From NCBI GenBank assembly GCA_048938385.1, contig JBHLMG010000018.1, positions 1 to 45,975 of the forward strand: 45,975 nucleotides of DNA, read 5' to 3'. The notes beneath the pieces are model-generated. The model searched no databases. It was not told the origin of the DNA and saw nothing but the letters and a program-made list of their open reading frames with translations. Source of the DNA: Promethearchaeota archaeon (GTDB taxonomy: Archaea; Asgardarchaeota; Hermodarchaeia; Hermodarchaeales; Hermodarchaeaceae). The translations under genes and the position numbers were made by a program. Shown here piece after piece: positions 609-45,975 of this stretch (positions are counted from its first letter, which is position 1; each line of letters starts with the position of its first letter).

Positions 609-701
609 AAGGTTAATTCAGCTCCTTCGAAGGGTGTTTTTTGTGAAAAGGGGAGGAGTCAGCTGGAAATCTATACCAGGCTGGTCTTCGTATTCCCATA
701 G

Positions 702-862: not shown

Positions 863-1588
863 GTGTACCTGGTTCTGGGAGAGTTTGTCTGCCGAGTGAA
901 CCAAACATCGTGGTGGCACGGAGTGTCAGTGGGCAAAGTAAAACGAGTCATTGGCGGCGTTGAAGCACGCGAAATTATCCTCCACCAACTCCTCGACGGC
1001 CCACAGACGGGGATCGTGTTGCGCGCCGCGATTGGGCGACGCGTGTCGAAATCCGTGGATGAAGTCTCCGATGCCATGCTGTATTTTAACCTCCAGCACC
1101 TCGAAAACAACGGGCTCATTGAACGCTTCCGGGACGGCAAAGAGAAAGCCGCACGAATCGTTCCGGCGCAAATCCAAAGCGTCCGCCGCGTTTTAGGCGT
1201 CAAGGCCCCCATAGCCTATTTGGGCGCGATCGGTGAAGATCCGGGCGTGTTGCACGCGGTGCCTAAACGGATTCGGGCCGAAACCACCTATCGTCCCGAA
1301 AAATACCACTACTTCGTGGAGGAGGCGACGCAGCGTCGGCTCAGTGGTCTGACGGCGGAACGGGTGCTCCATGAAGTGCCCACCGACATCTTCTACCACG
1401 ATTTGGGGAGAATGTATGAACTCGTCTACCACCTGTCCCAAGAACTCATCCGGGAATATGCGATTCTCATCGATGTCACCGGGGGCGGAAAGGTCTGTGC
1501 CCTCGCCCTCTTTCAGCTTGCCATCGAATTTGATTTGCCTTGTATTTTCGTCAACGAACTGGGCAGCGTGACCTGGATGCGCCGCTAG
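863..1588 (+). CDS. Winged-helix + CARF-like domain protein, putative nucleotide-sensing transcription regulator
   Basis: N-terminal half resembles an ArsR/PadR-type wHTH (REIILHQLLDGP...LYFNLQHLENNGLIERFRDGKEK). C-terminal half is Rossmann-like with the CARF motif ILIDVTGGGKVCALAL..LA...PCIFV. TATA-like TTTATATG at 830-837. True start may be GTG at 929 (GGAG upstream). Confidence 0.75.
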   Translation: MYLVLGEFVCRVNQTSWWHGVSVGKVKRVIGGVEAREIILHQLLDGPQTGIVLRAAIGRRVSKSVDEVSDAMLYFNLQHLENNGLIERFRDGKEKAARIVPAQIQSVRRVLGVKAPIAYLGAIGEDPGVLHAVPKRIRAETTYRPEKYHYFVEEATQRRLSGLTAERVLHEVPTDIFYHDLGRMYELVYHLSQELIREYAILIDVTGGGKVCALALFQLAIEFDLPCIFVNELGSVTWMRR

Positions 1589-1630: not shown

Positions 1631-3835
1631 TTAGGGTCCCGTATGGTTGTGATCTACCAGCGTGTAGGGAATATGGGTTTGTAAGGGTCCAATGAGCTGC
1701 TTTTGCCGCAAACTGAAAATGGCTTCAAACACCTCAAGGGACTCAGCGTCAGAGTCGCTGGTGTACCGGTCAAGGAGGTCTCGAATTAAAAAGGAGTCCT
1801 GTTCAGCGTTGAGCGCCTTTGCTAGGCTAAAGAGGCGCCGTTCCGCAGAGGTGAGGGACACCTCATCGCTTTTCTCGGTGCGAACAGCATGGGGTAGTCG
1901 GAAACTAATGAAGAAATATTTGTCCACCAGATCGATGGCTTCCCCGAAGATGTTCAGTCGCCCGGCCCAATTTTCGAGCACATCAGCGTATTCTTCTTCG
2001 AAGGCGAGGGTAAACTGTTCTAATCGTGCGTGGAGTTGGTCACTGGGTGGTTGTTTGAAAATGATGGCGTTGCGCATGTAGGTTCCATCGTGCACAACGA
2101 TGTGGAAGTCGCGGTATTTGATTTCACGTAGGGGCGTATCGTGATCTTCGATGGGAACATAGGAATCCTCGTTCTCGGTTTCGGTTAAGGAAATGCCGAA
2201 GGTCGTGATGGCTTGAATCAACGCCGTCACTAAGTTCGCGTTCATGGTGCGATCCATGATGGGATCCAGGAGGCAGAGCCCGGTTTCTTTATGGATGAGC
2301 AAAATCCGTTTGATTTTTTCAATGTCGGCGAACGAGTCGGCCAGCGTTTGGAGGAGGCGCCGGCGTGTTCGTTGTTTGGGAAGAAGAAATTGCTGACGGT
2401 AGAACACGAATAGTACGAGGAACACGGCGACGAGGATCACGACGACCCAGAGGATGAGCCCTCCATAGAGGGTGAACGGGGACATGGGCACGGTACAATA
2501 AATTGCCCAGAGACCATCTTCGGCATGATCGATAAACACCGTGGTCCCCATTATAGTCCAGTCCTCGTAGAGGAGGGTGTTTCGCGTGATGAAGCGTACG
2601 ATCCATTCGGGATCCAGCTCGATGAGAACAGTTTGATTTTTGACATTCTGCGGAAAATCGATGATGATTGTGACCGCCCAATTCACCTCTAAATGCCCGG
2701 AGGTAAAATCAAAACCTGCCAGGATGGAGGTACTTTCGATGAATGCACCAGTCCACTCAACATCGAACTCAACAGGCCACTGGTAGAATTCCAACCAATT
2801 CACCGTAACCTGAAAATTGCGACCTGCCCCGTTTAAGGCCAGGGGTGGTTGAAACGCGCCGCTATCCCACCATCCTTTTGAGGGCGTTAAAACATTGGTG
2901 ACTGCGATTCCGTTAACCTGCATGTTGATATCGGTAGGGAAGACTTCGAGGGACTCGGGAAGGATTGAGATATTGAGAAAAAGATCGCGGCGTCGGTAGA
3001 AAAAGGAGCTGTAGTAGTCGTAGCAGTCACCTTCGTCCTCTTCATCAGGATTGGCATCATCTCGACAATAGACCCAGTTTACTCGAGTATCGTCATCGTA
3101 GGCGCGGGCGAGGGCGAAATAGTAGGTGTTGAGAAACGTGGTCAGGGGATTGAGGATGAGGGTACTCTCGTTGGTATCGATCCACACCCAACGCTCCTGG
3201 CCTGGCGGAATGAGCGGCGAGATCGGCTCTTCTCTCCAGTCAGTGAGTACTGCAGAAGTATTAGGGATCGTAGCGGCACTAGTTCCGGGTTGTGCACCGT
3301 ACACACGATAGCGAAAAATGCCTTTAGATTCACCGCGAAGGTAGATCCAAAAGCCATCCACACGCACCGGGTCAGTGCCATTGATAGTGAAGCTCATAAA
3401 TGATGTTTCTGTCTCCCAGATTAGATTTTCAAATGCGCTGTTGCGTGGGTTATAATCTTCAACCACAAGTTGGATGGGTTCGGGTTCAATTCGGGTGAAA
3501 TTAAGCGTTTCCCGGCTCAGCATTCCTTGCAACGCCTCAGCAGAGAACGCCGTGTGGCTATTCCAAGATTGCCAGTGAACTTGCTGATTCCATCGTAACT
3601 GAGCCTGGAGGGTATTTTCAGTGCCTGGAAGCTGTAAATACCTCAACGGAATAGGAAAAGAGGTTCCAACACATGAATGCCTTGGTGAGTAGGAGTAAAC
3701 ATCATGTTGAGGGACATCGGATGGAACGCAGTGTGAAAAGGTGAGCAGATTAGCACAGGCCATTAGAATCAGGCTAAGAGTCAGACCTATCATATGAAGG
3801 CCCGACGAAGCCCGGGGTCCCTTCATACCTTCCAC
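1631..3835 (-). CDS. Single-pass membrane protein: signal peptide, large extracellular region, TM helix, cytoplasmic longin-like domain and C-terminal helix-turn-helix-like domain
   Basis: Hydrophobic N-terminus; TM segment GGLILWVVVILVAVFLVLFVFY followed by basic residues. Cytoplasmic ILLIHKETGLCL...LVTALIQAITTFG...LREIKYRDFHIVVHDG...PSDQL..RLEQF...FEEEY...LENWAG matches the pattern of Asgard longin-like domains. Confidence 0.75.
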   Translation of the reverse strand: MEGMKGPRASSGLHMIGLTLSLILMACANLLTFSHCVPSDVPQHDVYSYSPRHSCVGTSFPIPLRYLQLPGTENTLQAQLRWNQQVHWQSWNSHTAFSAEALQGMLSRETLNFTRIEPEPIQLVVEDYNPRNSAFENLIWETETSFMSFTINGTDPVRVDGFWIYLRGESKGIFRYRVYGAQPGTSAATIPNTSAVLTDWREEPISPLIPPGQERWVWIDTNESTLILNPLTTFLNTYYFALARAYDDDTRVNWVYCRDDANPDEEDEGDCYDYYSSFFYRRRDLFLNISILPESLEVFPTDINMQVNGIAVTNVLTPSKGWWDSGAFQPPLALNGAGRNFQVTVNWLEFYQWPVEFDVEWTGAFIESTSILAGFDFTSGHLEVNWAVTIIIDFPQNVKNQTVLIELDPEWIVRFITRNTLLYEDWTIMGTTVFIDHAEDGLWAIYCTVPMSPFTLYGGLILWVVVILVAVFLVLFVFYRQQFLLPKQRTRRRLLQTLADSFADIEKIKRILLIHKETGLCLLDPIMDRTMNANLVTALIQAITTFGISLTETENEDSYVPIEDHDTPLREIKYRDFHIVVHDGTYMRNAIIFKQPPSDQLHARLEQFTLAFEEEYADVLENWAGRLNIFGEAIDLVDKYFFISFRLPHAVRTEKSDEVSLTSAERRLFSLAKALNAEQDSFLIRDLLDRYTSDSDAESLEVFEAIFSLRQKQLIGPLQTHIPYTLVDHNHTGP

Positions 3836-4058
3836 TACTTCCCTTTTTCAGATGCACCACGAACACAATGATACACTTATCACATTGGTTGGTGCGGCAA
3901 CTCTGGAAATCTGTAGCATTTGAGAACCGCCCTCAACACGATAAATACTTTTGTTCACAACGATTGGGGAAGAGAAACGGTTGGAGTTTTCGAAATTTTG
4001 GTTTGAAACGCAACCGACAAAAACCTGAAATTTTTGCTGAAAAACTGAATGGATTGCA

Positions 4059-4775
4059 CTAGTCGCTGTGAGGAGCGAATGGAACAAACGCGGCGTCGCG
4101 AAGGATTGGGGTCAAACTGAATCGGTTTGGTTGGGCGCAAAAGTAGATGTCGTCTTCATAACCTGCCTGGACGAGGATGCTACCATGCCGACTGACGAGG
4201 AGTTCACGGGCAATGTCTCCCGTATCGGCGTAGCTGCGGGGATCGTTGGGTCGTTCAATCCGGCTGATGATATGGTAGGAGGTAAAGTCATCCTCTAAGG
4301 CAGGACCATGCATGCTTCCCGCGGATATTACCGAAATTTGTCGTTGCGATTGGTGAGAGAGGGTGCGGGCTGTCGCGGCGACATGTTCGATGTTTAAGAA
4401 CGCCCCCACGAGGATAGTAGCGGTCTTTGGGGGTTTGCCTAAGGTACGAGTGAAATTACTCGTCGTTAAGATGATGGGACGCCCATGGATTCGCTGGGTG
4501 AAAAAGCTTCGGGGGGAATTTCCGTAATCAAACCCTGCCGGGGCATGGGCGGCTCGTTCGCCTGCGAGAAACCCATCAGGATAGTAATAAATTAGGTCAC
4601 GGGCTTCCTCAACAGTGGGAACGGGGATGATTTTCGATGCGCCGTTGGCGAGAGCAGTGATAATTGTACTACTGGCACGTAAGACATCGACGAGGATCAC
4701 GATGTGGTTGGCGGTCACAGCGTTGGCGAGCGCGTCGGGTCCGACCCCATGGTTCACTGTACGCAGAGACGACAT
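4059..4775 (-). CDS. comB: 2-phosphosulfolactate phosphatase (ComB) family protein
   Basis: VDVLRASSTI, LAGER, FDYGNSP, ILTTSNFT, GAFLN, LEDD motifs. Confidence 0.88.
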   Translation of the reverse strand: MSSLRTVNHGVGPDALANAVTANHIVILVDVLRASSTIITALANGASKIIPVPTVEEARDLIYYYPDGFLAGERAAHAPAGFDYGNSPRSFFTQRIHGRPIILTTSNFTRTLGKPPKTATILVGAFLNIEHVAATARTLSHQSQRQISVISAGSMHGPALEDDFTSYHIISRIERPNDPRSYADTGDIARELLVSRHGSILVQAGYEDDIYFCAQPNRFSLTPILRDAAFVPFAPHSD

Positions 4776-4804
4776 GATATAGAAGGCTCTGGCGTTGTCG
4801 AGGT

Positions 4805-5431
4805 TTAAGGTTTCGGAGTCACCATGAGGTGTAGCTGTCGGCGATAGTAGAGAATTCGGTAAAGGACGGTGAGATGGCTGAGGATGGCTACTAGTATGAC
4901 GCCTAGATAGGGGAATCCTGGGTGTAGCACTGAGAGCAGGCTCGTCACGACCAAGATGAACAGGCGTTCGGATCGCGCAGCCAATCCCACATCAGTATCC
5001 AAAACACCAGCCGCTTGCGCGCGACTACGCGCATAGCTCACTAAGAGGCTTCCAGTCATAGCCGCTGTAACCCACCACCAGGTGGGACCTAACTGGGGCC
5101 AGGGATTGACCGTCCAAAGGAAGGGAGCGAGCACCACTAAGTCAGAGATTCGATCCAGCATCGAATCGACAAACCCTCCGCGAAGGGATGTTCGTTCGGT
5201 TCGGCGTGCGACCTCTCCATCAACGCCATCTAAGACGCCGGCAAGGAAGACCAACCCTCCATAAGCGAGGTACCACTGCCACAGATGGAGGACTAGGGCA
5301 GCTCCCAGCGCTACAAGGAAGGCAAGACCACTAATAGAATTGGGACCTAGACCAAGTTTTACGAATCCCCCAGCCAACCATTTGACTAAAGGTCCGAAGA
5401 CCCGACGGAGACGCCAGCGTGACGGCACCAT
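4805..5431 (-). CDS. CDP-alcohol phosphatidyltransferase (archaetidylinositol phosphate synthase-like)
   Basis: Signature DGVDGEVARR...GGFVDSMLDRISD; SYARSRA; RSER; multiple TM segments. Confidence 0.93.
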   Translation of the reverse strand: MVPSRWRLRRVFGPLVKWLAGGFVKLGLGPNSISGLAFLVALGAALVLHLWQWYLAYGGLVFLAGVLDGVDGEVARRTERTSLRGGFVDSMLDRISDLVVLAPFLWTVNPWPQLGPTWWWVTAAMTGSLLVSYARSRAQAAGVLDTDVGLAARSERLFILVVTSLLSVLHPGFPYLGVILVAILSHLTVLYRILYYRRQLHLMVTPKP

Positions 5432-5448
5432 AACTCACTTCCCAGTGC

Positions 5449-6456
5449 TTAGTAGACTACATTCCCCCTCGCATCAAGGATCGCAGCCTGGAGTTCTACA
5501 TTTGTCGGGACATGCGTATGTGCCAAGGTGATACACCGGGTCAACGAGGCGTTCGCATTTACTCGTGTGGATGCACCCAAACTCGTGGAATCTTTCACTT
5601 CACATCCTTCATCAATGTACACTCCTGGCCCCAATAACACCGGCCCTTCGACAACTGAATCCCTTCCTAATGTCAGCGAAGCACTCTGCACTGGGCCGGT
5701 CATCGATGTACTAGGAGGAAGGTAGGTTCCAGGAGGACGCGGTGTGGGGGGCCATGCGGTTGTAAGAAGATGGTGATTCAACGCCACCAAACTAGCGGGG
5801 GTATCTACATCGTACCATCCCTCCGCTTGAACGGGAACCCCGCGAATAGGATACCCCTCGGCAAGCCAGCGTTGTAGCAGATCAAAGACCGTGGTTGGAG
5901 AAGAGGGGTGAAGAGCAAGAGCATCGATGAAAAAGCGTACGCTCGCACGAAGGATTGGAAGCGCAGAGTGAAAAGCCGGAAGGTGGACGGGAGACTGAAT
6001 GAGCTCCGAGATGGAGTGATTGGCGTCTACCCGAAGAAGGGTCCCTGGGCGTTTAGTGCTGGAATCATAGAGCAGAACCGGCTCTGTAGCAGTTGGTGTG
6101 ATTAGGTGGAGGATCTGTGGAGTCAGGTACAAATCCCCGGGTAGGAGAACGCAAGGTGTATCCGGGTTAAGATGGGGTAAAACAGCTTGGAAGGAGGCGA
6201 GGGGTCCCTGTGCCCAATTCGGCGCAACTATGGGAACGACTCGATGTTGCCGGGCTACTTGCTCGAGGAATTGTTGCAGGTGGTCACCGGCGTAACCTAC
6301 CGTTACATAGATGGGGGAAAACCCCACCAGGCTCACGGTAGTGAGCAGGTAATCGAGGAGTGGCCAGTTGGCCGCGGGGAGAAGCGGTTTTGGCAGATGG
6401 TCTGTGAGAGGCGCGAACCGCTTTCCACGACCACTTGCTAAAATCACAGCTTGCAA
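5449..6456 (-). CDS. Sugar/polyol-phosphate nucleotidyltransferase with C-terminal left-handed beta-helix
   Basis: VILASGRGKRFAPLTDHLPKPLLP; WYDVDTP; hexapeptide repeats (VEGPVLLGPGVYIDEGCEV). Confidence 0.88.
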   Translation of the reverse strand: MQAVILASGRGKRFAPLTDHLPKPLLPAANWPLLDYLLTTVSLVGFSPIYVTVGYAGDHLQQFLEQVARQHRVVPIVAPNWAQGPLASFQAVLPHLNPDTPCVLLPGDLYLTPQILHLITPTATEPVLLYDSSTKRPGTLLRVDANHSISELIQSPVHLPAFHSALPILRASVRFFIDALALHPSSPTTVFDLLQRWLAEGYPIRGVPVQAEGWYDVDTPASLVALNHHLLTTAWPPTPRPPGTYLPPSTSMTGPVQSASLTLGRDSVVEGPVLLGPGVYIDEGCEVKDSTSLGASTRVNANASLTRCITLAHTHVPTNVELQAAILDARGNVVY

Positions 6457-6520
6457 AGTGCGAGCCTCGAACAGGTTTTAATTGAGGAATGCATTCTTCT
6501 TAGGTGGTGGCAACTCAAAA

Positions 6521-7159
6521 ATGACTAGGCGTCAGGCCGTTGATCCCCAGAACCCCGATCAACGAGTCATCAACGAAGTAGCGGCTCTGATCCAGCAGGG
6601 CGGTCTGGTGGTGCTCCCAACGGACACGGCCTACGGGCTCGCTGGAGACCCCCAGAACCCCACTGTAGTAAACCGGGTTCTCACTGTAAAACGCCGCGTT
6701 GGGAAACCGGGTATGCCTCTACTCGTTGCTAGCCTAGCCCAAGCGCGTCGCTTCGGAAACTTTTCAAAACTTGCTGAAGCCTTAGCCACCCGGTTTTGGC
6801 CAGGAGCGTTAACCCTCGTGGTCCCAACGCATCACACCTTTCCTACTGGCATCCTAGGTCCCCAGAACTCTCTTGCCTTGCGAATACCCAACCACCCAGT
6901 CGCCCTGGCTGTAATCCAGACCCTAAAGGCCCCGGTGATTGGCACTAGCGCTAACAAATCCACGGCACCGAGCCCCCGCAGTGCAGAAGCCGCTATTGCT
7001 CAAATGGGAGATGCAGTCGACTTGGTTCTGGATGCAGGTCCTACACCACTATCAAAGGATTCTACCATCATTAACTGCACCATCACCCCGCCAGAAATCT
7101 TGCGGCGTGGAGCTCTTCCCGTGGCTACTTTGCGCCCCCTATTGGATTTTCAGGAATAG
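6521..7159 (+). CDS. tsaC: L-threonylcarbamoyladenylate synthase (TsaC/Sua5, YrdC domain only)
   Basis: PTDTAYGL, KRR, FWPGALT, RIPNH, SANKS, ILRRGA; ATG at 6521 chosen. Confidence 0.93.
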   Translation: MTRRQAVDPQNPDQRVINEVAALIQQGGLVVLPTDTAYGLAGDPQNPTVVNRVLTVKRRVGKPGMPLLVASLAQARRFGNFSKLAEALATRFWPGALTLVVPTHHTFPTGILGPQNSLALRIPNHPVALAVIQTLKAPVIGTSANKSTAPSPRSAEAAIAQMGDAVDLVLDAGPTPLSKDSTIINCTITPPEILRRGALPVATLRPLLDFQE

Positions 7160-7230
7160 GAGAAATCTGGAGATGGATGGAGCGCACTTCCTGAAGACTT
7201 AAAAAAGGTAGCGCGCACCCTTTGAATCAT

Positions 7231-7761
7231 ATGCTATCCGTCGATGACAAATTCAATCTGCTCCTCTCGTGCCGTCGATTCCAAGAAGCAGAAAGCTGTC
7301 AAGAACTCAGTCGACTCCTCGATGAGGAAACCAACTTTGGATCTCTCGGGTGGTGCAAACTCACTGGAATCACCTGCTTGGTCGTGGCGAACATTGACGG
7401 AGATGCCCATCAGTTTGTTATCCGAGTGGGAGAATTAGTCAAAAAGATGCCTTGGATCGTCCAAGACCTTTTGAAAATTCACCCTATTGACCTCGTCGTT
7501 GAAAGCACCGTGGACGCTATTCGGGCAGGTAGTAAAGAACTCGCCAAGCGAATGAAAAAGACCGAAAAATTTCGGGTGAACCTAAATCGTCGCGATACTG
7601 ATTTAGACCGGGATAAACTGTTACACCTTGTAGCAACCCAGTTTCCAGGTCAAGTCGATTTAGAAGAGTATGACTGGATTGTCGCCGTAGAGATATTGGG
7701 ACCCATTACTGGACTGGCTCTGCTTCGAGAAGAGGAGATCGTAACTCTCCGCCGTCCTTAA
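7231..7761 (+). CDS. Stand-alone THUMP domain RNA-binding protein
   Basis: FNLLLSC.RFQE.E, KFRVNLNRR, VDLEEYDWIVAVEILG..TGLALL. Confidence 0.85.
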   Translation: MLSVDDKFNLLLSCRRFQEAESCQELSRLLDEETNFGSLGWCKLTGITCLVVANIDGDAHQFVIRVGELVKKMPWIVQDLLKIHPIDLVVESTVDAIRAGSKELAKRMKKTEKFRVNLNRRDTDLDRDKLLHLVATQFPGQVDLEEYDWIVAVEILGPITGLALLREEEIVTLRRP

Positions 7762-8357
7762 TGGGAAATTGCGAGAAGAGCGCAGCGGTCATAAATCAAC
7801 TTTTGCACAGCTTGCGTGCGTTCCGTGAAACTGTCAGTTGAAGAGATAGCTTCTAGTTCCAGGTCAGTAATTTGAAACAGCTTCTGAATCCTCGCCAGCT
7901 TCTCGTTCGATGCGATTTCGAGCACCGAGGGGGTATCCGTGGCAGGAGCTAGGCGAAGAAACTCCTGATACACGCCTTTTAGATGTGCAGCATCGGTGTG
8001 AATGAGGACACCGCCCACATGTTGTGTGGATGCATCCAGCCCAATTGTGTCGAGAGCTTTGGAAATCTGGCGTTGTGCGGCAGCGAAGCGTAGGATCTCT
8101 GTTGCTAAAGTGGACGCTCGATTCGTACCACGATGAAAGGCCGTTAAAGCATGCATCGCAGCGAAGAGCAGGTGGTCGGGACTCGCAATGAAAGCAGCGT
8201 TTACCGCCTGGAATGTCACCTGAGCTGAATTCGTCACAGGTTGCATTCGTTCTAACAGGGTCATGGGTGGGATAGACTGACTGAGCGTGGACCCAAAGAT
8301 ACCCACGATGTGTTTAGTGGGACCGATACGGACTTCGTGAAGTTGGAGAGGAGCCAT
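7758..8357 (-). CDS. cgi121: KEOPS complex subunit Cgi121
   Basis: HLLFAAMHAL.AF.RG.NRASTLATEILRFAAAQRQISKAL..IG; F.I...EL; DRCALL. Confidence 0.92.
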   Translation of the reverse strand: MAPLQLHEVRIGPTKHIVGIFGSTLSQSIPPMTLLERMQPVTNSAQVTFQAVNAAFIASPDHLLFAAMHALTAFHRGTNRASTLATEILRFAAAQRQISKALDTIGLDASTQHVGGVLIHTDAAHLKGVYQEFLRLAPATDTPSVLEIASNEKLARIQKLFQITDLELEAISSTDSFTERTQAVQKLIYDRCALLAISH

Positions 8358-8401
8358 GTCGCGTTTCCACCTCAATTAGTGGAGATAAAGTGGTTGATAA
8401 A

Positions 8402-30453: not shown

Positions 30454-30885
30454 TTAATCTGCCTTAGCTGGTGCCTTCTCCTTGGCCGGCTCCTTCTCCT
30501 TGGCCGGCTCCTTCTCCTTGGCCGGCTCCTTCTCCTTCGCCGGGGCCTTTTCCTTCGCCGGTTCTTTAGGTGGTGGTGAAGGAGCAGGTGTAGCAGCTAC
30601 AACTTCTTCCTTCTTATGGCGTTTGATGATATACTTTGGTTCATGTTCGAGGGCGTCTTCTTTAGAAGGATACAGGCGTGCATAACCTTTTGCGGTTGGC
30701 TGACCGTATAATCCGTTGAGCTTTAAGATGTATAACTCATCTTCTTTGCAATTGAGCATAGCAGCAAGCTTTGCACGAACATCTAGTCTTTGCGGGGTTG
30801 CTGTTCCTTGGTGCTCAACCATGAATGTGATGTCCTGACGGTTAAGTAAGGGATTGTCCGATTTTTCTTCGATTTTAATTTTCAT
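30454..30885 (-). CDS. rps24e: 30S ribosomal protein S24e with repetitive C-terminal tail
   Basis: NPLLNR, TPQR, GYARLY, EPKYIIKRH; ATG 30885. Confidence 0.95.
   Translation of the reverse strand: MKIKIEEKSDNPLLNRQDITFMVEHQGTATPQRLDVRAKLAAMLNCKEDELYILKLNGLYGQPTAKGYARLYPSKEDALEHEPKYIIKRHKKEEVVAATPAPSPPPKEPAKEKAPAKEKEPAKEKEPAKEKEPAKEKAPAKAD
30474..30563. repeat. 18-bp coding tandem repeat (3 exact + 2 degenerate copies)
   Basis: CCTTCTCCTTGGCCGGCT x3 at 30474-30527, then two variants; encodes (E/A)PAKEK in eS24. Confidence 0.95.
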
Positions 30886-45744: not shown

Positions 45745-45975
45745 TCACTTACTCTTTTTCGTCGTCTTTGATTTCTTCTTGGCTGCAGGCTTCTTCGCAG
45801 CCGCCTTCTTCGCTGCAGGCTTCTTCGCAGCCGCCTTCTTCGCTGCAGGCTTCTTCGCAGCCGCCTTCTTCGCAGCCGCCTTCTTCGCTGCAGGCTTCTT
45901 CGCAGGCGTTTTCTTGGCTGAGGGAGCTGCACGCCCAGGTAGGAGCGTAATTAGTTCGTTGTATTTTTTCTGAAA
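45745..45975 (-). CDS. 3' end of a gene, probably RNA polymerase subunit Rpo3 (RpoD), with H1-like Lys/Ala/Pro tail
   Basis: Open frame FQKKYNELITLLPGRAAPSAKKTPAKKPAAKKAAAKK...KKSK*. Identity rests only on its position upstream of rpl18e in the conserved operon. Confidence 0.65.
   Translation of the reverse strand, partial: FQKKYNELITLLPGRAAPSAKKTPAKKPAAKKAAAKKAAAKKPAAKKAAAKKPAAKKAAAKKPAAKKKSKTTKKSK
45773..45916. repeat. 15/30-bp coding tandem repeat
   Basis: GCTGCAGGCTTCTTCGCAGCCGCCTTCTTC x3 at 45782-45871 plus further 15-bp units; encodes (P/A)AAKK. Confidence 0.95.

Follow-up and report, generated by a model that had tools for sequence, protein, structure and literature searches.

Our study concerns a divergent gene pair at the start of a 45,975-nucleotide stretch of DNA (the window) from a Promethearchaeota archaeon of the family Hermodarchaeaceae, referred to below as Hermod. 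The minus strand at positions 3-608 carries the N-terminal 202 codons of a eukaryote-like actin of the lokiactin type, whose gene runs off the contig end, while positions 923-1588 on the plus strand carry a regulator of 221 amino acids plus stop. The regulator has an N-terminal winged helix-turn-helix (wHTH) domain of the PadR/ArsR-SmtB type (residues 1-93, positions 923-1201) followed by a C-terminal CARF domain (residues 94-221, positions 1202-1585). The open reading frame marked at 863-1588 on the plus strand by the initial annotation is real, but its likely start is the GTG at 923 and not the frame's first GTG at 863. Seventeen close homologues, all from Promethearchaeota/Hermodarchaeota metagenome-assembled genomes (MAGs), are about 221 residues long, with conservation from residue 2 of the GTG-923 product. 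A TGGTGG ribosome-binding motif (911-916, plus strand) lies 6 nt upstream of this GTG; eight related genomes conserve both, but not the DNA that separates the motif from the TATA box. On these grounds we place the gene at 923-1588. The codons of the DVTGGGK motif fall exactly at 1472-1492, as annotated, D184 of the 221-residue product being located at 923 + 183 × 3 = 1472. Downstream, a convergent gene (1631-3835, minus strand) encodes a 734-residue single-pass membrane protein with no Pfam match; it is confined to close Hermod relatives (726 residues in locus L002) and lies outside the conserved actin-regulator unit.

The intergenic region

The spacer between the two genes holds a TATA-like box for each of them: ATTTATATGC at 829-838 on the plus strand for the regulator, which is invariant in eight Hermod genomes, and TTTTATAAA at 720-728 on the minus strand for the actin, which is semi-conserved in the same set. 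Alignment of these eight genomes reveals two invariant blocks between the TATA boxes, CTATCAACGTTAT (754-766) and TGTTGAAT (779-786), amid otherwise diverged DNA. They belong to a conserved element at 747-786, a candidate operator, which is built from the inverted 11-mers CATCCCTATCA (749-759) and TCATAGCGATG (770-780) with the core TATCAACGTTAT. In the Hermod relatives the two blocks form inverted 11-mers of the arrangement CATCTCTATCA-N10-TGATAGAGATG; in the window copy 9 of the 11 positions pair between 749-759 and 770-780.

Matches to the Hermod half-site with up to three mismatches number 41 in the actin-regulator spacers of other lineages, which are not independent of one another, against 18.6 ± 4.2 in shuffled spacers, and none of 200 shuffles reached this count. 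The site is also present in three Jordarchaeales genomes in which the regulator lies elsewhere: GTCATtTtTATCAAC...GTTGA stands about 110 nt upstream of the actin gene, at a comparable position, and agrees with the Hermod site at 13 of 15 positions. An unbiased count of 6- to 8-mers across the actin-regulator spacers of the different lineages gave nothing above shuffles, so that the case for the cis-element rests on footprinting within the genus and on the Hermod-derived half-site. The arrangement of half-sites also varies between lineages, from the N10 spacing of Hermod to near-abutting copies in Hod and Baldr. Because of the null k-mer count and this difference in spacing, the sequence comparisons are suggestive of 747-786 as the operator of the regulator and go no further than that.

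Two other candidates in this region were rejected. A perfect palindrome at 702-718 (AAAATTCGgCGAATTTT) was discarded as an operator, its right arm alone being conserved in eight close relatives, and a hairpin in the 5' leader of the actin gene (609-700, minus strand) does not exceed shuffled sequences in stability in this genome (z 0.60). Within this leader, the blocks 622-633 and 662-697 are invariant in the eight Hermod genomes. The presumed leader includes CTCCTTCGAAGG, with a 10-bp palindrome beside the ribosome-binding site; the second block reads GCTGGAA...CCAGGCTGGTCTT.GTATTCCC, and relatives can form a GGAATAC/GTATTCC hairpin here.

Fold, family and predicted dimer of the regulator

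Searches with the single sequence against Pfam, NCBIfam and the PDB returned sub-threshold matches only (PadR at 18.8 bits, the HTH of Csa3 at 13 bits and Can2 at E = 1), and the assignment of the CARF domain required a family profile, structure prediction and the PADLOC database. An exhaustive homologue search yielded 27 representatives, down to about 22% identity, and the resulting 28-row alignment was the input for AlphaFold2. The model has two domains and is of high confidence (pLDDT 94.5, pTM 0.87). Its C-terminal half is a β-α-β sandwich with β1 at 97-103, β2 at 125-133, β3 at 147-152, β4 at 180-184 and α4 at 190-202, closed by a hairpin at 207-220 (β5 207-210, β6 216-220). As modelled, residues 94-221 display the sheet topology that defines the CARF superfamily, a Rossmann-like sheet of the order β3-β2-β1-β4-β5 with an antiparallel β6 that follows a reverse turn between β5 and β6 and has no covering helix (PMC8699464).

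Structure searches with residues 94-221 point in the same direction. Foldseek against the PDB placed Can2, Csm6, Cdn1, Cam1 and Card1 on top. A PDB search independent of Foldseek (VIA-align, 48,161 chains) returned Can2 (8bao, Z 15.7 over residues 95-221), VC1899 (14.8), a second Can2 structure (7bdv, 14.1), Card1 (14.1), Cdn1 (13.9), Csm6 (13.3) and Csa3 (6wxq, 11.2), with no Rossmann-type fold outside the CARF group among the best 50 matches listed. The similarity seen to a CARF ring nuclease of the Crn1/Sso2081 type (7ygh, Z 11.7) is one of fold. The identification of this domain as CARF by the initial annotation is thus borne out by Foldseek on the AlphaFold model, and the competing possibility of a non-CARF Rossmann fold did not materialize. 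The family profile matched the CARF domain of Cdn1 in the PDB (E 4.6e-5), and 8 of the 28 family members matched the Pfam family CARF_Card1. The strongest sequence match was to the PADLOC-DB family PDLC01987 ('CARF_m5--CARF'), with E 1.1e-41 and 141 bits; it covers residues 9-218 on positions 9-194 of a 195-position profile, the next PADLOC family following at E 4e-5. At the level of sequence, this full-length match, which takes in the N-terminal wHTH, identifies the protein as a member of CARF_m5. The PadR family itself (PF03551) scores 18.8-19.1 bits, below its gathering cut-off of 27, while in structure searches the fold of the N-terminal domain resembles PadR/ArsR/SmtB wHTH proteins.

The architecture had been described as reversed, and the order is indeed wHTH first and CARF second; it is not an unknown form, however, but that of the catalogued minor clade CARF_m5. 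Residues 96-220 of the model, its CARF domain, align with the CARF domain of Csa3 at residues 1-132, so that the domain order is opposite to that of Csa3, and a survey published in 2014 found CARF to be typically N-terminal with the wHTH downstream (PMC4012209). We found nothing on CARF_m5 in the searchable literature.

The protein is predicted to form a homodimer (ipSAE 0.52, against 0.00 for the best control); of 30 solved homodimers, 20 reach the mark applied to this score, as does 1 of 23 single chains. At least 96% of contacts are common to the runs, and the partner pLDDT is at least 87. The predicted interface comprises residues 159-162, 185, 188-190, 193-201 and 209-219, which correspond to the β4-α4 loop, helix α4 and β5/β6, and places K190 near the dyad with a K190-K190 contact error of 4.0 Å. 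Packing through α4 is also how the CARF domains of Csa3 dimerize (PMC8699464). The CARF dimer that had been expected for this protein is therefore recovered in prediction with the canonical α4 interface, and the prediction may in part echo solved CARF dimers remembered by the predictor.

The DVTGGGK motif (D184-K190, positions 1472-1492) occupies the β4-α4 loop, aligns with NVTGGTK of Can2 and fits the motif II pattern [DN]-x-[ST]-x-x-x-[RK]. The β1-α1 loop, where motif I of CARF domains provides a small or polar residue for ligand contact, reads YLGAIGEDP; it contains a glycine, differs from the T-h-G-F-(N/D)-E of Csa3 and varies between orthologues. Conservation is unevenly distributed over the two domains, with a mean pairwise identity among orthologues of 48% in the wHTH against 28% in the CARF domain. 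Nine residues (R16, L20, L23, G26, G30, Y54, N56, L60 and R88) do not vary among 25 orthologues, and conservation within the protein is highest in the recognition region S49-E61 (SDAMLYFNLQHLE). The stronger conservation of the wHTH fits a DNA target that is shared between orthologues. Conservation of the CARF pocket across orthologues is weak, with recurrence limited to D184, G188 and a basic residue at position 190 (16 of 18 non-Thor lineages).

The lower conservation of the CARF half would equally be expected of a transcription factor that needs no ligand, in which the CARF domain has decayed to a dimerization scaffold and which acts constitutively or under some other control, possibly still on actin. 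The motif II basic residue is missing from all seven Thor sequences examined, which have Pro, Thr or Leu in its place, and from f5 and f26. Moreover, searches of the regulator's own genome, a 2.48-Mb MAG of 89.8% completeness, for SMODS CD-NTases and DAC gave no match, and no cyclic-nucleotide synthase of a known type was thus found there. On the other hand, the motif D-x-[TS]-x-G-x-[KR] is kept in Hermod and in 16 of 18 non-Thor lineages, and the actin-linked non-Thor proteins conserve a clade-specific basic β2-α2 loop of the form [RK]-x-[RK]-h-x-G (residues 137-142, here QRRLSG). The residues of this loop lie outside the predicted interface, so that dimerization does not require their conservation. 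We regard a purely structural CARF domain as a serious rival, above all for Thor, yet as an unlikely account of this protein.

Pairing with actin and the CRISPR context

The most informative feature of this locus, the Asgard-wide head-to-head pairing of the regulator with an actin gene, was missed in the initial annotation. The fragment in the window matches the Pfam Actin family with E 2e-71, and a full-length relative of it matches the Asgard HC1 actin with E 2e-195 and eukaryotic actins with about 1e-163. In 40 loci fetched from representative genomes and scored for the actin arrangement, the pair is divergent in 31 and tandem in 1, and 1 is cut by a contig end; 3 hold orthologues away from actin (two from a single Jordarchaeales family, f7, and one from Helarchaeota), and the remaining 4 hold distant paralogues without actin. 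Named records with the pair come from Hermod-, Hod-, Baldr- and Jord/Freyarchaeia, Thorarchaeota and Ranarchaeia, and include a closed 1.42-Mb genome that we take to be Odinarchaeum. The divergent actin partner recurs beside homologues of 25-42% identity whose other flanks differ, and in 20 lineages the genes on the other side of the regulator belong to 13 unrelated clusters; the linkage to actin is thus not one of general synteny. A maximum-likelihood tree places the actin-linked and separated orthologues (42 rows) on one side of a branch with 95/92 support and the Cas10-adjacent paralogues on the other, and since the tree is unrooted we claim no direction of descent. These observations are best explained by an orthologous group that has been passed down in many Asgard classes and has stayed head-to-head with the lokiactin gene. 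The searchable literature yielded nothing on the control of actin expression in Asgard archaea, nor on a pairing of actin with a CARF regulator.

Some loci depart from the common arrangement or are imperfectly assembled. In the f30 lineage (L038, L082 and L083) regulator and actin are co-directional, with the regulator first and a gap of about 250-350 bp; one of these records bears the label Deferrimicrobium, which is probably wrong for this MAG. In many independent assemblies the contig breaks off within the actin gene (the window at 1-608, L003, L011, L012, L052, L053, L057, L058 and L065). The probable cause is that near-identical actins of co-occurring strains interrupt the assembly, which would leave the actin locus systematically truncated in these MAGs. 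In L013 (~3081-4245, from a second Hermod genus) and L015 (~4881-6051, from the closed 1.42-Mb genome) the actin matches the query as two segments in different frames, which a frameshift, an error of sequencing or a short insertion close to the N- or C-terminus could explain.

Adjacency to actin is a correlative link to regulation, and it could represent inherited synteny devoid of regulatory meaning, in which case the protein would regulate itself or other genes, for example those of a ComB-like block. This block, which encodes a ComB-like phosphatase, a CDP-alcohol phosphatidyltransferase, a nucleotidyltransferase, Sua5, THUMP and CGI-121 (4059-8375 in the window, also in L004 and L010), lies downstream in Hermod, Jord/Frey and Helarchaeota, and in Helarchaeota it stays adjacent to the regulator where actin does not. 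In Hod, Baldr and Thor, where actin is still divergent, the locus nevertheless lacks this block, and the block, being convergent, shares no promoter with the regulator; furthermore, the conserved intergenic element remains with actin when the regulator moves away. We accordingly consider it improbable that the pairing lacks regulatory meaning. The ComB block of L004 contains insertions of ComA and a split TPP enzyme, which suggest a sulfolactate/coenzyme-M-like or headgroup pathway.

The description of this protein as lacking CRISPR context holds for the window and for the whole MAG, in neither of which a cas gene or array was found, but not for the CARF_m5 family elsewhere. Searches of the 2.48-Mb, 89.8%-complete assembly for Cas1, Csm1, Cmr2, the Cas10 palm and RAMPs gave no match, and a crude scan of it for CRISPR arrays returned only a coding repeat, a beta-helix-type repeat of 69 nt on contig C41 that was rejected as an array. 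The tandem repeats of the window at 30462-30569 and 45745-45935 were likewise rejected; they are coding runs of 15-18-nt units on the minus strand, corresponding to Lys/Ala-rich low-complexity tails of the AAKK type. The distribution of the regulator and of the Cas10 palm was followed over 300 genomes of the phylum. A profile scan of genome contigs used 8 rows, the full 28-row alignment being without a conserved stretch. The regulator is present in 11 of 18 genomes of its own family and the Cas10 palm in none of these; in the Thor family (f6) the figures are 72 and 11 of 76, and in f12 they are 3 and 0 of 3, the latter including two single-contig genomes that are 96-97% complete.

The CARF_m5 family taken as a whole is linked to CRISPR, because paralogues and distant members adjoin Cas6 or the cas genes of type III-D systems. 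At least six genomes have lower-scoring paralogues at distances of 1.6-7.5 kb from Cas10, and a distant member of 23% identity is divergent from Cas6. The closed Freyarchaeia chromosome CP147778 carries a paralogue 0.9 Mb away from its actin-linked copy; a Csx1-Cas10-Cas5-Cas7 type III-D operon diverges from this paralogue, and Cas6 flanks it. The type III-D module at this site (L088, 2.686-2.698 Mb) appears complete, with Cas7, Cas5/Csx10, Cas10, a Csx1 CARF-HEPN protein and Cas6. That the window protein is itself an ordinary type III accessory regulator, sensing cyclic oligoadenylate made by a Cas10 whose locus is missing from an incomplete MAG, could be argued from these CARF_m5 paralogues beside Cas10, Csx1, Cas7 and Cas6, from the completeness of 89.8% and from the frequent failure of CRISPR arrays to assemble, but is very improbable given the absence of the Cas10 palm from all 18 family genomes, the failure to find Cas1, RAMPs or an array, the 95/92 branch that sets the orthologues apart from the Cas10-adjacent paralogues, and the regulator-bearing f12 single-contig genomes without Cas10.

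A proposed model for the control of actin and its relation to known CARF systems

Our structural predictions, coupled with the gene pairing and the conservation of the intergenic element, suggest a model in which the protein is a homodimeric one-component transcription factor of the CARF_m5 clade that exerts ligand-tuned control of actin through the element at 747-786. The CARF domains would dimerize via helix α4 and form a two-fold pocket lined by the β4-α4 loop with its DVTGGGK motif, while the two wHTH domains would bind the inverted-repeat element, upstream of both divergent TATA boxes. A nucleotide-like ligand in the CARF pocket would then alter DNA binding and thereby tune transcription of the actin gene and of the regulator itself. 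In archaeal promoters a site upstream of the TATA box favours activation over steric repression, and the position of 747-786 upstream of both TATA boxes favours activation rather than repression as the direction of control. Within this model, the fold, the clade membership, the geometry of the predicted dimer, the gene pairing, the conserved cis-element and the lack of CRISPR are shown by the analysis, whereas binding to the element, actin as the target, gating by a ligand and the direction of regulation are inferences. We judge the chances of this model as a whole to be about even.

Since searches of the genome turned up neither Cas10 nor a cyclic-nucleotide synthase of a known type, a ligand, if one exists, would not be a Cas10 product in this lineage. 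The earlier suggestion of a housekeeping role with a different, non-Cas10 ligand is plausible for a CARF regulator without CRISPR. A more specific proposal, which we put forward tentatively and with less confidence than the model above, is that of a CRISPR-independent nucleotide signal, in which an exapted CARF domain reads a small ligand from some enzyme and switches lokiactin transcription in Asgard archaea. If true, this would represent signal-controlled expression of a cytoskeleton in a prokaryote, built on a sensor module of antiviral origin. CARF sensors are otherwise tied to cyclic-oligoadenylate signalling in antiviral defence; here one would have been recruited to a core cell-biology gene without CRISPR, and its presence at such a gene in CRISPR-less genomes would imply that CARF domains have a new ligand or that a known ligand comes from a new source. 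The regulator is small and easy to express, and together with the DNA element of about 40 bp it offers a direct experimental handle on the control of Asgard actin.

A comparison with known CARF proteins highlights both the kinship and the distinctness of the actin-linked regulator. Other CARF_m5 proteins (PDLC01987), including the type III-D-linked members of Asgard genomes, have the same architecture and size. The Cas10-adjacent paralogues carry a canonical (S/G)xTK motif II and fall outside the actin-linked group of the tree; they lack the basic β2-α2 loop that is present here, and the actin-linked gene has no cas neighbour and lies in a genome without CRISPR-Cas. The nearest structures, those of the CARF4-type proteins Can2, Card1 and VC1899 (PDB 8bao, 7bdv, 6wxw and 1xmx; Z 14-15.7, rmsd 1.8-2.7 Å over 115-121 residues), are N-terminal CARF domains fused to cA4-activated nuclease effectors, whereas the protein described here has a DNA-binding domain and no nuclease.

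Csa3 (Sso1445; PDB 6wxq) is a cA4-binding CARF-wHTH transcription factor of type I-A systems. The two proteins resemble each other as one-component regulators that combine a wHTH with a CARF domain, predicted to be dimeric in our case, and their CARF folds align with Z 11.2. The β1-α1 and β4-α4 loops of Csa3 form its ligand pocket at the dyad (PMC8699464). The window protein belongs to a different family, scoring 13.3 bits against the Csa3 model TIGR01884 (cut-off 60.2) in the HTH part only and lacking the Csa3 domain order, and its genome yielded neither Cas1 nor an array that would link it to type I-A or CRISPR adaptation genes in the manner of Csa3. While Csa3 controls cas and CRISPR promoters, the gene described here adjoins an actin promoter. 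A precedent for a CARF sensor that controls the transcription of non-CRISPR genes exists in RtcR (PMC4012209), which is bacterial, sigma-54-dependent and of another architecture, with no sequence match to this protein seen. Set against these systems, the wHTH-CARF architecture is one already catalogued as CARF_m5, and what stands out is the pairing with actin across Asgard lineages, together with the conserved element in the promoter region.
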